Source: a bacterium | GTDB lineage: Bacteria; Bacillota; Clostridia; Christensenellales; CAG-138 | NCBI GenBank assembly: GCA_963608365.1 | Contig: CAVDFM010000003.1 | Span: forward strand, 1 to 35,330 | Direction: 5' to 3' | DNA length: 35,330 nucleotides | Shown here: positions 2,799 to 30,944 of the stretch, one piece after another | Layout of the letters: each line of letters opens with the position of its first letter | Position numbering within the stretch: position 1 is the stretch's first letter | Program-made: the position numbers and the translations under genes | Notes under the pieces: model-generated | Seen by the model: only the letters and a program-made list of their open reading frames with translations | The model's database searches: none | Told to the model about the DNA's origin: nothing

Positions 2799-2890
2799 GT
2801 GAAATCCGCCTGAAGGCGGGTGAAATATTGCTTACGCAATGTGAAATATGGCTCCGCCATGTGAAATCCTGCCTTGCGGCAGGGTGAGCG
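2799..2890 (+). repeat. Tandem array of four GTGAAAT+hairpin units closed by GTGAGCG (copy 1).
   Basis: GTGAAAT at 2799, 2820, 2841 and 2861, and GTGAGCG at 2884 (spacing 21, 21, 20, 23). Each heptamer is followed directly by a 4-6 bp hairpin: ccgcc-tgaa-ggcgg, attgc-ttac-gcaat, atggc-tcc-gccat, cctgcc-ttgc-ggcagg. Confidence 0.85.
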
Positions 2891-3352
2891 TGAGAGTTTG
2901 TGGACTGCACCAAAAGGCTCCCCGGACGGGGAGCTGGCAATACGCCGTAAGGCGGATTGACTGAGGGGTTGTGATAAGCAAAGAGCTGCGAGCTAATTTA
3001 TAACCCCTCCGGCTTTCGCTTACGCGAAACCCACCTCCCCTTTCAGGGCAGGCTAACTCCTTCCGTCAATTCGCTATCGCTCATTGCCACCTCCCTCAAA
3101 GAGGGAGGCTTAACGCAGGAGTTTATGAGGTACGCCAAAAGGCGCCACCGCGTGCGGGGGAGCTGCTGAGCGTAAGCGAAGCTGAGGGGGAACATCTCAC
3201 GGCACTTGGCATCTTTGAGCCGTTCCCCTTTCGACTGCTCATTTCATTCGCAGCCACTTTCCCCGTAAACGGGGACAGCTTTTGGTTAGTACTATAACAA
3301 GCCTCCCTGTCGAGGGAGGTGGATGCGAGTGCAACGAGCAGCCGGAGGGAGT
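2891..3352. repeat. Mosaic hairpin-repeat cluster R1 (BIME/REP-like organisation).
   Basis: Contains core A copies at 2910-2971 and 3135-3191 and core B copies at 3002-3056, ~3063-3113 and 3298-3351 (inverted). Near-identical modules recur at 9.7-10.2, 14.1-14.6 and 30.9 kb. Confidence 0.85.
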
Positions 3353-3353
3353 T

Positions 3354-3383
3354 AAAAAAGACAACCCCTCGGCTGTCTTTTTT
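3354..3383. terminator. Bidirectional intrinsic terminator (serves jag on the minus strand and selD/R1 read-through on the plus strand).
   Basis: aaaaaagaca (3354-3363) pairs with tgtctttttt (3374-3383) around a 10-nt loop. There are A/T tracts on both sides, and it lies 14 nt beyond the jag stop. Confidence 0.7.
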
Positions 3384-4392: not shown

Positions 4393-5366
4393 TTATTAGC
4401 ATCCTCCTTTACCGGGGCCGTCCTCGGGAATTTCTTGTTCAGTATAAGGTTGACTATTATCATTATGATGCTGGTCAACGTCCAGTAAATTGCAAACGCC
4501 GCGTTGTAGTTAAGGCAGAATATAAAGCTCATTATGGGGAACAGATAGTTCATCCACTTGGTGGACTTGGCTGCTTCCTCATTGGCGGCGGGGGTATTCT
4601 TGGTCATGAGCCAGGCGGAAAGGAAGTTGGTGCCGCCGGCAAGTATGCTCATTATGAACCAGCCGTTGTTGTATCCCTTGTAAACGTCAAGGAAGGGCTG
4701 AATGGCCGCATCGTAAATGGCTATGGCCGCATCGTTTGAAAGGAGCTGATAGCTCACGCCGCCCTGATAAACCTTGGTAACGGCAAGGCCCATTTCAACC
4801 AGCTTTTCGCCAACGCCGGGCTCCTGCAGATACAGCAGGTTTGAAAGATTGGGCGTTGCAAGGAAGCTTGCGCCGTTGGCAAGCACGGGCGCAAGGCCGT
4901 TATCGGGCTGCCAAATATTGTTTATCCACAGGAACTTGAAGGATTTGAACAGCTCCATGGCGTTTTCATCCACAAGCAGCCTAAGGTTCATTTCATATCC
5001 CCAGTAACGGAAAGCCGCTATGAAGCAGAAGAAAAGCGGCATGGTTATGAGCATCGGCAAACAGCTGCCCCACATGCTCACGCCCTTTTCCTTCATAAGC
5101 TTTGTCTGCTCCGCCTGGAACTTTCTTGGATCGTTGGCATACTTTTTCTGCAGCCGCTGAATTTCGGGCTGCACCTCCGCCATCTTTGCGGAGGACTTGC
5201 GCGTCTTTATATCGGAAAATATGGTCAGCGCGCGCAGAAGTATGGTGCTTATCAATATGGTAAGGAATACGTTGCCGAAGCCGCTTGCGGATATGGCGCA
5301 GGTAAGGCTGTATATCCAGCGCATTGCTTCAAGGAACCAGTTTGTCAAAAAGAAATCACCGGTCAA
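4389..5366 (-). CDS. yidC: Membrane protein insertase YidC/SpoIIIJ (Oxa1 family).
   Basis: 325-aa polytopic ORF in the conserved rnpA-yidD-yidC-jag order, with the typical ..QPEIQRLQKKY..K..EQ..LMKEKGV.. segment. The start is a TTG with a GAGAGG-like RBS, so the exact start is uncertain. Confidence 0.88.
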   Translation of the reverse strand: MTGDFFLTNWFLEAMRWIYSLTCAISASGFGNVFLTILISTILLRALTIFSDIKTRKSSAKMAEVQPEIQRLQKKYANDPRKFQAEQTKLMKEKGVSMWGSCLPMLITMPLFFCFIAAFRYWGYEMNLRLLVDENAMELFKSFKFLWINNIWQPDNGLAPVLANGASFLATPNLSNLLYLQEPGVGEKLVEMGLAVTKVYQGGVSYQLLSNDAAIAIYDAAIQPFLDVYKGYNNGWFIMSILAGGTNFLSAWLMTKNTPAANEEAAKSTKWMNYLFPIMSFIFCLNYNAAFAIYWTLTSIIMIIVNLILNKKFPRTAPVKEDANK

Positions 5367-8100: not shown

Positions 8101-8385
8101 TATATCAACAGAGTTATCCACACAGTGTGGATAACTTATGTGGATTACACAATGCATGATTGTTGAAAACGTGGAAAATGTAAACAACGTGGACAAGTAC
8201 ATATTCCTTACCACACTTATCCACACGAGTTCTAACATCACTTTTTCAGCATTTTGGGACAAAACCAAACTTGTCCACACAACTTACAACGCTACTGCTA
8301 CGGCTGCTGTTAATATATATAGACACGCCGGCGCGAGTGTGTGGATAAGAGCTACCGTTGTTAATAAAAGAGGAGGTTCAGATAT
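8101..8385. other. oriC: oriC (dnaA-dnaN intergenic origin): a DnaA-box cluster, a DnaA-trio-like tract and an AT-rich stretch.
   Basis: Perfect TTATCCACA boxes at 8114-8122 (+), 8126-8134 (-), 8217-8225 (+) and 8340-8348 (-). One-mismatch boxes at 8139-8147 (-) and 8271-8279 (+), and weaker ones at 8170-8178 and 8188-8196. A period-3 tract CTACTGCTACGGCTGCTGTTAATA lies at about 8291-8316, followed by TATATATAG. Confidence 0.82.
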
Positions 8386-9498
8386 ATGCGCATAATAGTG
8401 GATACAAACGCGCTGAACGCGGCGCTTTCAACCGTAACAAAGGCCCTGCCGGTAAGGAGCACCATATCGGTACTTGAAGGAGTATATATGAAGGCGGAGC
8501 AGAGAAGGCTGCTGCTTCGCTGCACGGATCTTAATATTCAGATAGAAGCCAGCATAGACGCCCTAATTGAAAAGGAAGGCGCAACGGTGCTGCCTGGCAG
8601 GCTGTTTTCCGAAATGGCCAAAAGGCTGCCGGGCGAAAGCGTATCAATAGACGTAAATAAGAAGAACACCGCGGAAATAATCAGCGGCACATACCGCACC
8701 ACGCTCCAATGCGAGGATGCGGGCGACTACCACGCCATGAACGAAGTGGAAAGCGACACTTCGATTAAAATAGAACCCAACGATTTCAAGAGTATGGTCC
8801 GCGGCTGCATATTCGCCGCCGCTCAGGACGACACAAAGCCCATACTGACAGGCGCGCTGATGGAGCTTGGTTCAGACTCCCTCCGCCTTATAGCGCTGGA
8901 CGGGTACCGTCTTGCGCTGCGCACCGCGCCCATAGTGAACAACGGCGCGGAGGAAAAGGAAATAGTCGTTCCCGCGCGTTCGCTCATAGAAGTCGCGCGT
9001 ATACTGCCGGACGACGGCGAGAAGGCGACCATAACCTTCAGCCGCACCCACCTGAGCGCCACCGGCGGCGACGTGAAGATTATAGCCCGCCTTATGGAAG
9101 GCGACTTCATAAAATATAAGCAGATATTGCCCACCGAGCACATGACCCGCGTGCGCGTGAACCGCAAGGAGCTGCTCGACGGCATAGAGCGCGTTGCGCT
9201 GATGGCGCGCGAAAGCAAGAGCAACCTTATCAAGTTCTCAATTTCCCGGGAAATGATAGAGATATCCGCCAACAGCGAGATAGGTCGCAGCAACGAGGAG
9301 ATCCCCTGCGCCGCCATGGGCGAGGATATAGAGATCGCCTTCAACAACAAATATCTTACCGACGTTTTCAAGGTGCTTGAGGACGAGGAGATTTACATGG
9401 ACTTCAACAGCAACGTAAGCCCCTGCGTGGTGAAGCCCATAAACGGCGACGAATATTATTACCTGATACTGCCCGTAAGGCTGTTCACGGGAGCGTAA
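8386..9498 (+). CDS. dnaN: DNA polymerase III beta sliding clamp.
   Basis: 370 aa directly after dnaA/oriC, with a strong RBS (agaggaggttcagatatATG) and typical clamp length and N-terminus (MRIIVDTNALNAALSTV..). Confidence 0.95.
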   Translation: MRIIVDTNALNAALSTVTKALPVRSTISVLEGVYMKAEQRRLLLRCTDLNIQIEASIDALIEKEGATVLPGRLFSEMAKRLPGESVSIDVNKKNTAEIISGTYRTTLQCEDAGDYHAMNEVESDTSIKIEPNDFKSMVRGCIFAAAQDDTKPILTGALMELGSDSLRLIALDGYRLALRTAPIVNNGAEEKEIVVPARSLIEVARILPDDGEKATITFSRTHLSATGGDVKIIARLMEGDFIKYKQILPTEHMTRVRVNRKELLDGIERVALMARESKSNLIKFSISREMIEISANSEIGRSNEEIPCAAMGEDIEIAFNNKYLTDVFKVLEDEEIYMDFNSNVSPCVVKPINGDEYYYLILPVRLFTGA

Positions 9499-9515
9499 GC
9501 GGGCTGACAAGAGCG

Positions 9516-9607
9516 GTGAAATCCGTTCTTGCGAACGGGTGAAATATTGCTATCGCAATGTGAAATATGGCTCCGCCATGTGAAATCCGCCTTGCAGCGG
9601 GTGAGCG
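9516..9607 (+). repeat. Tandem array of four GTGAAAT+hairpin units closed by GTGAGCG (copy 2).
   Basis: GTGAAAT at 9516, 9539, 9560 and 9580, and GTGAGCG at 9601. The hairpins are ccgttc-ttgc-gaacgg, attgc-tatc-gcaat, atggc-tcc-gccat and ccgc-cttgca-gcgg. Units 2 and 3 nearly match copy 1. Units 1 and 4 differ in sequence but keep their pairing. Confidence 0.85.
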
Positions 9608-9626: not shown

Positions 9627-9654
9627 GGGGACGGGAAGCCGTCCCCTTATTTTT
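9627..9654 (+). terminator. Intrinsic terminator of dnaN.
   Basis: ggggacgg-gaag-ccgtcccc followed by ttattttt. Confidence 0.75.
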
Positions 9655-10195
9655 GCCCAAAGTTTATAGGAAGCGTTGTAGGGGCCGTCATTGGCAGCCC
9701 GTTGAGATTATGTAAGAGTTTGTAAAGCGCACCAAAAGGCTCCCCGGCCGGGGAGCTGGCAAACCGAAGGTTTGACTGAGGGGTTGAAGTAAAAAAGTGA
9801 AGCTACGGTGCAAACCCTCCGTCTGCTCGCTTCGCTCGCATCCACCTCCCCGTGCGGGGAGGCCTAATGTTAGAGTTTGGACAGCAGCCGTGACTGATGG
9901 AGTATTAGCCTGAATAGTTGAGAAAACCGCTTGACACTTAACTGATATTTGTGGCATATTATCTATAGAAGCATGGCTCTGTTGACCGTCTTGGACGTAC
10001 GTCTCGGGAACATCATTTGATGCCTTATAGGGATATTCGGAGGTGCTTCTTTTTCAACCCCTCCGTCTGCTCGTTGCACTCGCATCCACCTCCCTCGACA
10101 GGGAGGCTTAATATAAAAGTTTGTAATGTATTCCAAAAGGCTCCCTCTTAGAGGGAGCTGGAAATTCGCTGCAAGCGAATTTTCTGAGGGAGTAA
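9655..10195. repeat. Mosaic hairpin-repeat cluster R2, with a ~175-nt unique insert.
   Basis: Core A at 9732-9786 and 10133-10192; core B at 9811-9867 and 10055-10111. The unique segment at 9868-10054 replaces the core A half of one unit. Confidence 0.85.
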
Positions 10196-10221
10196 CCCAA
10201 AAGGGACGCAATGCGTCCCTT
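10196..10221 (-). terminator. Intrinsic terminator of glgA.
   Basis: On the reverse strand, aagggacgc-att-gcgtccctt is followed by TTGGG (with the paired TT this reads TTTTGGG). It lies 24 nt beyond the glgA stop. Confidence 0.7.
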
Positions 10222-14039: not shown

Positions 14040-14632
14040 TGATCTATTTTTGCCAAGGGGCCAGGGGAGATTTCGATTTCTCCCCTTAGGCCCCCTGGCG
14101 ACCCCCGTAACCCCTTTGAAACGATCGCTCCGCGAGGGGTACGGCACTGTACGCCGTGTTTGCACTGCGCCCAAAAGGCTCCCCGCACGGGGAGCTGGCA
14201 ATACGCCGTAAGGCGGATTGACTGAGGGGTTGACGTAAACAAGAGCAGCCCCGATGCAACCCCTCCGGCTTTCGCTTGCGCGAAACCCACCTCCCCGTTC
14301 GGGGAGGCTTAACGTAAGAGTTTATACTGTACCAAAAGGCGCCACCGCTTGCGGGGGAGCTGTCGAGCCGTAGGCGAGACTGAGGGGGAATAGTAAAATA
14401 GCTTGGCAACTCCGAGCCGTTCCCCTTTCGGCCACTCACTCCGTTCGTGTCCACTTTCCCCGCAAGCGGGGACAGCTTTTGGTTGGAATTATCGCCAGCC
14501 TGCCCTGAAAGGGGATGTGGCGAACGAAGTGAGCCGGAGGGGTTATAAACCGGCTCGCTGCTCTCCGTTTATCTCAACCCCTCAGTCGGCTTACGCCGAC
14601 AGCTCCCCGTTCGGGGAGCCTTTTTGATAGTC
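14040..14632. repeat. Mosaic hairpin-repeat cluster R3, filling the glgB-glgC spacer.
   Basis: Core A at 14171-14232, 14332-14389 and 14575-14626 (inverted). Core B at 14257-14312 and 14496-14544 (inverted). There is also a nested hairpin at 14054-14098. Confidence 0.85.
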
Positions 14633-30782: not shown

Positions 30783-30882
30783 GCGTGCTCCTTTGTGCGT
30801 TTATATGCCGCTTTTGCTGCTTTTATTATAAAGGCAGGGAAGGTTAAATTGCAATATATATCGGGGCTGTACTTGTTTACGC

Positions 30883-30944
30883 CAACCCCTCAGTCAATCC
30901 GCCTTACGGCGTATTGCCAGCTCCCCGGCCGGGGAGCCGTTTGG
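30883..30944 (-). repeat. Solo inverted copy of repeat core A.
   Basis: caacccctcagtcaatccgccttacggcgtattgccagctccccggccggggagccgtttgg is the reverse complement of 2910-2971 and 14171-14232, apart from the tetraloop and one base in the A-tract. Confidence 0.9.

Follow-up and report, generated by a model that had tools for sequence, protein, structure and literature searches.

Two arrays of short hairpins lie in the window (the whole stretch of DNA analysed here, 35,330 nucleotides), one behind selD and the other behind dnaN, each on the same strand as the gene that it follows. In both arrays the heptamer GTGAAAT alternates with spacers of 13–16 nt, every one of which is a palindrome, and the array is closed by GTGAGCG. 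The features used in the text are listed here, followed by the stems of the hairpin modules named in it.

1747–2790, + strand: selD (selenide, water dikinase; TIGR00476 equivalog, 403 bits; Pfam AIRS/AIRS_C)
2797–2890, + strand: Gut-1 array 1 (heptamers read directly; RF01706 match; identical array in contigs L296 and L297)
2806–2819, + strand: array 1 hairpin 1, module T, ccgcc/ggcgg
2827–2840, + strand: array 1 hairpin 2, module R, attgc/gcaat
2848–2860, + strand: array 1 hairpin 3, module S, atggc/gccat
2868–2883, + strand: array 1 hairpin 4, module P, cctgcc/ggcagg
2891–3380: mosaic of other dispersed repeat modules, containing a GGCTCCCC..GGGGAGC hairpin, GACTGAGGGGTT and CACCTCCCC..GGGGAGG
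8386–9498, + strand: dnaN (DNA polymerase III beta clamp; Pfam DNA_pol3_beta domains 1–3)
9499–9515, + strand: decayed extra hairpin (hp0) from the dnaN stop to the first heptamer, seen by comparison with conspecific contigs
9514–9607, + strand: Gut-1 array 2 (heptamers read directly; RF01706 match)
9523–9538, + strand: array 2 hairpin 1, module U, ccgttc/gaacgg
9546–9559, + strand: array 2 hairpin 2, module R
9567–9579, + strand: array 2 hairpin 3, module S
9587–9600, + strand: array 2 hairpin 4, T-like
9627–9655, + strand: intrinsic terminator, GGGGACGG-gaag-CCGTCCCC then TTATTTTTG, 20 nt past array 2
Module P: stem cctgc/gcagg
Module Q: stem tgcgc/gcgca
Module R: stem attgc/gcaat
Module S: stem atggc/gccat
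Module T: stem ccgcc/ggcgg
Module U: stem ccgttc/gaacgg

Identity and probable transcription of the two arrays

The first-pass annotation of this DNA had reported an array of GTGAAAT units and hairpins after selD and a second one after dnaN. Both are real, with exact heptamers starting at 2799, 2820, 2841 and 2861 in the former and at 9516, 9539, 9560 and 9580 in the latter, and with GTGAGCG at 2884–2890 and 9601–9607, respectively. Eight of the ten GTGAAAT copies of the 35-kb window fall inside the two arrays, and shuffled versions of the window contain 4.0 ± 2.1 copies in total. The same annotation had recognized no known motif here, which has to be revised: both arrays match the Gut-1 RNA of Rfam (RF01706; PMC2864571) over model positions 1–77 of 77, array 1 with 72.7 bits at 2797–2872 and array 2 with 77.1 bits at 9514–9591 (gathering threshold 50; E about 1e-13 for both). 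An Rfam scan of the window returns exactly two matches above threshold, both to RF01706, and the copy number of Gut-1 in these 35 kb is two. The Gut-1 motif itself is therefore already known. It was described in 2010 by Weinberg et al. from 43 examples, all of them from human-gut metagenomes and with no cultivated carrier, and was judged by these authors to be a probable noncoding RNA that is not cis-regulatory, with no function assigned (PMC2864571). No later paper on Gut-1 was found in a literature search.

As in RF01706, both arrays have three hairpins separated and flanked by (G)UGAAAU. They have a fourth hairpin in addition, and this hairpin and GTGAGCG lie beyond the model, which stops after the fourth heptamer. 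Both are singlets, not convergent pairs (see following). The heptamer had been taken for a conserved single-stranded element. The conservation stands, as the heptamer is invariant in 198 distinct arrays, but the single-strandedness does not: in the Rfam structure only GAA is unpaired between hairpins, because the AU and the GU of adjacent heptamers pair and close each hairpin. The decayed hairpin hp0 ahead of array 2 is intact in most conspecific contigs, where it reads agagggc-taat-gccctca or agcgggc-ttac-gcccgca.

Array 1 starts 7 nt past the selD stop codon and array 2 starts 16 nt past the dnaN stop codon. No promoter-like site was found ahead of either window array. The terminator after the dnaN array is also present in conspecific contigs, and the array–terminator layout recurs in Christensenella-like MAGs. 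From the stop-adjacent and co-directional arrays, and from the terminator after the dnaN array, we infer that the arrays are transcribed as 3′ UTRs; judging by position, they almost certainly belong to the selD and dnaN transcripts. Because they have no promoter-like site and start at the stop codon, they probably do not make a stand-alone small RNA gene in the window. The fold energies of both arrays on the + strand are better than those of shuffled sequences (z = −3.9 and −3.8), and the − strand of array 1 has z = −3.3 by the same comparison. As both strands fold significantly, folding energy picks neither of them.

Six DnaA boxes (TTATCCACA, at most one mismatch) at 8114–8348, in the dnaA–dnaN spacer, mark oriC, and since the boxes cluster there, both arrays lie within about 6 kb of oriC in the window. 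Two further DnaA boxes were seen at 4922–4974, inside yidC.

Module turnover and the adjoining mosaic

The stems of units 1 and 4 differ between the two arrays and still pair, and had been read as covarying. They are reshuffled hairpin modules and not the product of compensatory change. Unit 1 of the selD array (ccgcc/ggcgg) is the same module as unit 4 of the dnaN array, and other strains begin their dnaN array with the module that makes unit 4 of the selD array (cctgc/gcagg). The selD array thus has the order T-R-S-P, and the "covarying" units are the same modules at other positions. Among same-species contigs from human-gut metagenomes (DnaN 98–99% identical), the orders found after dnaN are P-Q-R-T, P-R-S-T, Q-R-S-T and, in the window, U-R-S-T. 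Within these dnaN arrays, loops vary between strains while stems hold. In one contig (L248), the dnaN array has been deleted, everything past the first heptamer being gone. These comparisons show that Gut-1 arrays grow, shrink, and reshuffle unit by unit, probably by recombination or slippage at the identical heptamers.

Relatives were reached by a metagenome scan and by homology search; the window DnaN and SelD have no exact record. The closest named relatives of SelD are those of Oscillibacter sp. MSJ-2 (83%) and of an "Eubacteriales" MAG (88%). In the species with 88% and 83% identical SelD, selD overlaps a convergent aminotransferase gene by 14 nt and is followed by no array. In L296 and L297 (SelD 98% identical, DNA about 92%), the selD array is identical to that of the window and comes with part of the repeat mosaic, after which one finds the aminotransferase gene and not jag. 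The overlap of selD without an array in the 88% and 83% relatives, together with the break of synteny in L296 and L297, thus indicates that the array block is a lineage-specific insertion and a recent gain. The synteny between the window and L296 stops inside the mosaic, at about 3067 in the window and about 2818 in L296; past the break, the window continues into jag-yidC-yidD-rnpA-dnaA, and L296 and L297 continue into the aminotransferase gene. The position of this break inside the mosaic suggests a repeat-mediated rearrangement.

The mosaic modules at 2891–3380 have no Rfam match at E ≤ 1. Clusters of the modules CCAAAAGGCTCCCCnnnnGGGGAGCTGGCAA, GACTGAGGGGTT...AACCCCTCCG, and CACCTCCCCnnnGGGGAGGC are found in the window at 2891–3380, 9700–10215, 14150–14620, and 30870–30940, and a Gut-1 array may accompany them or not. 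In the Christensenella-like MAGs L153, L178, L189, and L223, similar modules come after Gut-1 arrays.

A composite element in gut Clostridia and its neighbours

A strict three-heptamer pattern gave at least 120 matches in a collection of species-representative genomes, and the matches listed are almost all in MAGs of gut Clostridia (Oscillospiraceae, Acutalibacteraceae, Christensenellaceae, Ruminococcus, Coproplasma). Among these listed matches, many arrays lie at contig ends, as would be expected for multicopy repeats, several MAGs have more than one locus, and 19 of 199 arrays fall inside open reading frames called by a crude rule. Arrays hold four to five heptamer-like elements and three to five units, and the fourth hairpin with its degenerate closing heptamer (GTGAG, GTGGG) is also present in most relatives.

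In the 119 Clostridia loci among the matches listed, 140 of the 199 arrays are arranged as 70 convergent pairs, at most 80 nt apart, and there are no divergent pairs. The convergent pairs define a conserved composite of about 190 nt. Its A half contains four GTGAAAT parted by 17–18-nt hairpins whose sequence depends on their position, its centre reads GAAAT-AAATCC-nCTCAC, and its B half, on the opposite strand, is what RF01706 models, the A halves being mostly below the Rfam threshold. Covariation links the centre to a segment at the far end (GAAATAAATCC/GGATTTATTTC, GAAATTCGCC/GGCGAATTTC, TAAATCCACCC/GGGTGGATTTA). The upstream gene is co-directional with the array in 9 of 10 true solo arrays and in 41 of 48 composites, when composites are oriented by their Gut-1 half. 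In three loci (L196 6821–7041, L160 7659–7872, and L194 812–1071), two solo arrays converge on a shared terminator hairpin, a layout that looks like an expanded version of the compact composite.

Along the B half, the order starts with a tRNA or tmRNA gene and an intrinsic terminator whose first bases are AAAAAAGCAC; the B half, the A half, in a subset a promoter, and then a gene follow. The promoter points outward. In L134, the locus scanned, its −35 box abuts the last heptamer, and an extended −10 (TGnTATAAT) is found at a fixed 27-nt offset in about 7 of 57 composites. Of these 57 composites, 23 have the end of a co-directional tRNA or tmRNA gene within 120 nt and none has that of an opposed one; given how dense tRNA genes are in these loci, we estimate that chance would produce about 0.4 such cases. 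The tRNA genes upstream of composites represent at least twelve identities. Near-identical composites are found twice within a single locus in L129, L136, and L175.

The DNA upstream of a retained ..CTCCACCA remnant in L282 and L287–L295, or of a CCAGAAAAG junction in L310 and L311, is swapped for other genes, including a large serine recombinase. These cases look like ordinary integration of mobile elements at the 3′ end of tRNA or tmRNA genes, with the composite left intact. A composite had no match among cultured phage genomes, and the few true arrays in viral contigs are host tRNA flanks at prophage borders. In viral contigs, the loose pattern TGAAAT-N11-18-GTGAAAT-N11-18-GTGAAAT was discarded, as it gave mostly chance matches in AT-rich DNA. 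A phage-like viral contig (L020, 1564–1659) contains an unrelated tandem repeat, (TTTCAC-cccccatgaagaaaa) x5, that is matched by the loose pattern only and whose arrangement suggests the iterons of an origin.

In about 16 of the 119 loci (DNA-pattern matches listed), a PF05635 gene lies 15–55 nt beyond the composite. The module was seen in L129, L134, L154, L277, L287, L309, L312, L314, and others. The linked protein has 115 aa, starts with MAESKLRELS, and belongs to PF05635/TIGR02436 ("four helix bundle protein" or 23S rRNA-intervening-sequence protein); the other genes flanking these loci are mostly unrelated between loci. When one starts from the protein, all five members sampled (P0116, P0061, P0079, P0070, P0021) have a tRNA or tmRNA gene, a terminator, and the composite upstream. 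Four of the five have a promoter directly ahead of the gene, and P0070 has about 170 nt extra between promoter and gene. In L287, a second, internally deleted composite (2849–3015) lies directly past the PF05635 gene, with its Gut-1 half fused to the last A-half heptamer (GTGAAATATTTCAC) and followed by the same promoter-like region and the next gene. The PF05635 gene of this locus is thus bracketed by direct copies of the element, in a cassette-like manner. No match was found between the protein and the PADLOC defence models, and the 35-kb window contains no PF05635 gene. The closest solved relative of the protein is 2RLD, an entry with five chains. We take Avd, of the diversity-generating retroelements (DGR), to be another member of the PF05635 family. 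Avd forms a pentameric, positively charged barrel and, with a reverse transcriptase as partner, acts on RNA (PMC6182149). The composite, its linkage to tRNA and tmRNA genes, its linkage to PF05635, and the shuffling within species appear to be new in the searchable literature.

Strand, possible function and significance

A Gut-1 unit consists of GTGAAAT and a 4–8-bp palindrome closed by C:G, with a 3–4-nt loop. Pairing was judged by counting pairs directly in 339 distinct spacers, as MAFFT did not align stems of unequal length correctly. These spacers contain 1468 Watson–Crick pairs, 9 G.U and 27 A.C pairs (in the GTGAAAT sense), and 60 other mismatches. The 36 transition mismatches (G.U plus A.C) are singletons, and the comparison of the two classes was rejected as a test of the RNA strand: such rare singletons are uninformative, or speak weakly against selection on RNA of one strand. 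C:G closes 89% of the hairpins, and on the GTGAAAT strand 77% of them have T as the first base of the loop and 64% have C as the last. Seen from the ATTTCAC strand, these loops are C(GAA)G, C(GCA)G, C(GCAA)G, and C(GTAA)G and conform to C(GNA)G or C(GNNA)G. GNA and GNRA-like loops are unusually stable, notably GNA closed by C:G as a DNA mini-hairpin. A conserved TC/CT mismatch in the third hairpin of the A half corresponds to a tandem G.A on the opposite strand. The GUGAAAU sense, in turn, is favoured by gene orientation, and it is the only one that can form the A-U and U.G pairs with which the Rfam model closes its hairpins. These conflicting signals keep a single-stranded-DNA mechanism alive.

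The arrays share with Gut-1 as defined in RF01706 a full-model score above the gathering threshold and three hairpins flanked by four UGAAAU; in addition, human-gut metagenomes, which in 2010 were its only known source, also supplied the conspecific contigs. They differ by the fourth hairpin and the degenerate closing heptamer, and the Rfam motif is half of a larger composite. The description of 2010 gave no organism or context, whereas Gut-1 is here placed in Oscillospiraceae-like bacteria, Christensenellaceae, Acutalibacteraceae, and other gut Clostridia. Like REP/BIME sequences and REPINs (Bertels and Rainey 2011; PMC3116915), Gut-1 arrays are made of short palindromes flanked by a conserved motif; they are extragenic, follow stop codons in 3′ intergenic space, mix with other repeat modules in mosaics, and vary between strains. 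In both families, the main unit seems to be an inverted doublet, and a particular gene is found beside one of the copies. However, Gut-1 is a tandem of different mini-hairpins with a 7-nt constant and REP a single imperfect palindrome of roughly 35 nt. The constant element is GTGAAAT here and not the GTAG tetranucleotide of REP, the linked gene codes for a 115-aa four-helix-bundle protein and not for a RAYT transposase (Y1 tyrosine), and the hosts are Firmicutes, those of REP being Proteobacteria.

The protein-titrating small RNAs CsrB and RsmZ also repeat a short motif several times among hairpins, but the window copies have no promoter, the heptamer separates hairpins and is mostly base-paired in the Rfam model, and there is no known partner protein. 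In type III toxin–antitoxin systems (ToxI/toxN), a small protein gene is likewise preceded directly by a tandem array, and AAAU occurs in the Gut-1 heptamer; ToxN of Pectobacterium cuts at AA/AU. Yet Gut-1 units have 18–25 nt and a variable sequence, compared with the 34–36 nt of ToxI, a promoter lies between repeats and gene, the arrays converge, and the protein is not ToxN-like. Type III toxin–antitoxin and CRISPR-like readings were rejected, the units being too short and variable and the protein of the wrong nature. Integron attC cores (GTTRRRY/RYYYAAC) were rejected as well: the heptamer matches 6 of 7 positions, but the pairs are all convergent, an order opposite to that of attC.

With moderate confidence, we consider the Gut-1 arrays to be a REP/BIME-like repeat, i.e., a dispersed and fast-evolving extragenic hairpin repeat of gut Clostridia, here transcribed in 3′ UTRs. 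The array would be transcribed as a 3′ UTR and fold into four or five tight hairpins joined by GAA, and it would behave as enterobacterial REP/BIME do, colonizing the space after genes. A stack of hairpins at the 3′ end of the mRNA would block 3′-to-5′ exonucleases and insulate neighbouring transcription units, and may hence be tolerated or kept. Protection or insulation of the mRNA 3′ end would be the most likely effect of the window arrays, a stabilizing or insulating role that is taken solely from the analogy with REP. Several observations sit badly with this explanation. A terminator lies upstream of the Gut-1 half in composites, so that this half would be transcribed only by read-through; G.U is not favoured (9 versus 27 A.C), uncommonly for a structure under selection as the RNA of a single strand; the asymmetry of the loops and the tandem G.A point to the ATTTCAC strand; and no transposase or other mobilizing enzyme was identified.

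Because the heptamer is invariant across bacterial families, it is probably read by some trans-acting factor. The best candidate for this reader is the PF05635 four-helix-bundle protein, as its gene lies beside the complete two-array form after tRNA and tmRNA genes. The first-pass annotation had proposed a binding platform for a multimeric protein, and such a platform is possible, though on the unlikely side: the four or five GUGAAAU between hairpins would bind one multimeric protein, PF05635 being the candidate, and would tag or regulate mRNAs or titrate the protein. In agreement with this, the heptamer holds in 198 distinct arrays of several Clostridia families (matches listed) while stems and loops change, each array offers 4–5 heptamer-like elements, and one PF05635 subfamily is preceded by the composite in five of five members sampled. 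In addition, the closest solved relative, 2RLD, has five chains in its entry, and the presumed relative Avd is pentameric and acts on RNA (PMC6182149). Yet the window contains no PF05635 gene, only about one composite in six adjoins the gene, only GAA is unpaired in the Rfam structure, and the number of units varies from 3 to 5. Moreover, we know of no report of sequence-specific binding by the PF05635 family. A REPIN-like mobile single-stranded DNA, in which the ATTTCAC-strand hairpins would be the substrate of a copying or moving enzyme and the RNA a mere by-product, seems decidedly improbable, even if it accounts well for near-perfect palindromes that do not tolerate G.U, for the C(GNA)G and C(GNNA)G loops, and for the gain of the selD array in one lineage. 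It also agrees with the two near-identical composites inside single loci (L129, L136, L175) and with doublets that are inverted only, as in REPINs (PMC3116915), with 70 convergent and 0 divergent pairs among the matches listed. However, the neighbours called and annotated include no Y1/HUH transposase, no target-site duplication or insertion boundary is definable, and so strong a co-orientation with the upstream gene would more typically go with a role at the transcript level.

The window arrays lie 7–16 nt after stop codons, with no promoter-like site, and composites leave no room for a promoter, because the upstream terminator directly abuts the array. This makes it very improbable that Gut-1 is an independent small RNA gene, the class given by Rfam (Gene; sRNA) and by Weinberg et al., who judged it not to be cis-regulatory (PMC2864571), although composites do have terminator hairpins on both sides. 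We find it scarcely credible that the arrays are double-stranded iterons or operators at which a protein of replication, partition, or transcription would bind near oriC, as in the 21-bp iteron array once proposed here. Both window copies are within 6 kb of the DnaA-box cluster, and in composites (scanned in L134) the outermost heptamer abuts the −35 box of the outward promoter. GTGAAATA also resembles the half-sites of parS (GTGAAACA) and of the Noc-binding site (GGGAAATA). But heptamer spacing in the 198 distinct arrays (matches listed) varies between 16 and 28 nt and is hardly phased with the helix (resultant length 0.18 at a period of 10.5 bp), the repeats are direct and not palindromic, and loops that differ between strands are meaningless for a duplex site. 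The proximity to oriC holds in the window and fails as a conserved link: the selD array of L296 and L297 lies beside a different gene, away from jag–dnaA and hence from any fixed position at the origin or the initiator gene, and most family members follow tRNA genes. The spacing, the lack of a parS-like palindrome, and the unconserved link to oriC therefore make a double-stranded iteron unlikely. As for parS and Noc sites themselves, the window has no match to TGTTNCACGTGNAACA at up to 2 mismatches, and the heptamers are direct repeats within an array.

A further reading, which we regard as doubtful, is that Gut-1 arrays and PF05635 make up an undescribed two-part system. The master copy would lie after a tRNA or tmRNA gene, with a terminator, the two convergent arrays, a promoter, and the protein gene in this order; a probably pentameric protein would read the repeated GTGAAAT as RNA or as single-stranded DNA, and dozens of orphan 3′-UTR arrays would be its dispersed targets or its offspring. 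If true, this would be a Firmicute counterpart of REPIN–RAYT built on a nontransposase protein, and it would provide a first function for the non-DGR members of the large PF05635 family.

For some 16 years, Rfam has listed Gut-1 as an orphan without organism, context, or function. It is here tied to abundant gut Clostridia, to the tails of core genes, and to turnover between strains of a single species; in its full form, it is enclosed by tRNA or tmRNA genes on one side and by the promoter of a single "four helix bundle" subfamily on the other. This opens the questions of whether the protein binds the array, whether the array stabilizes or insulates transcripts, and how the units move. The arrays explain assembly breaks in the genomes that carry them and, being hypervariable, they could serve as strain markers in gut metagenomes.
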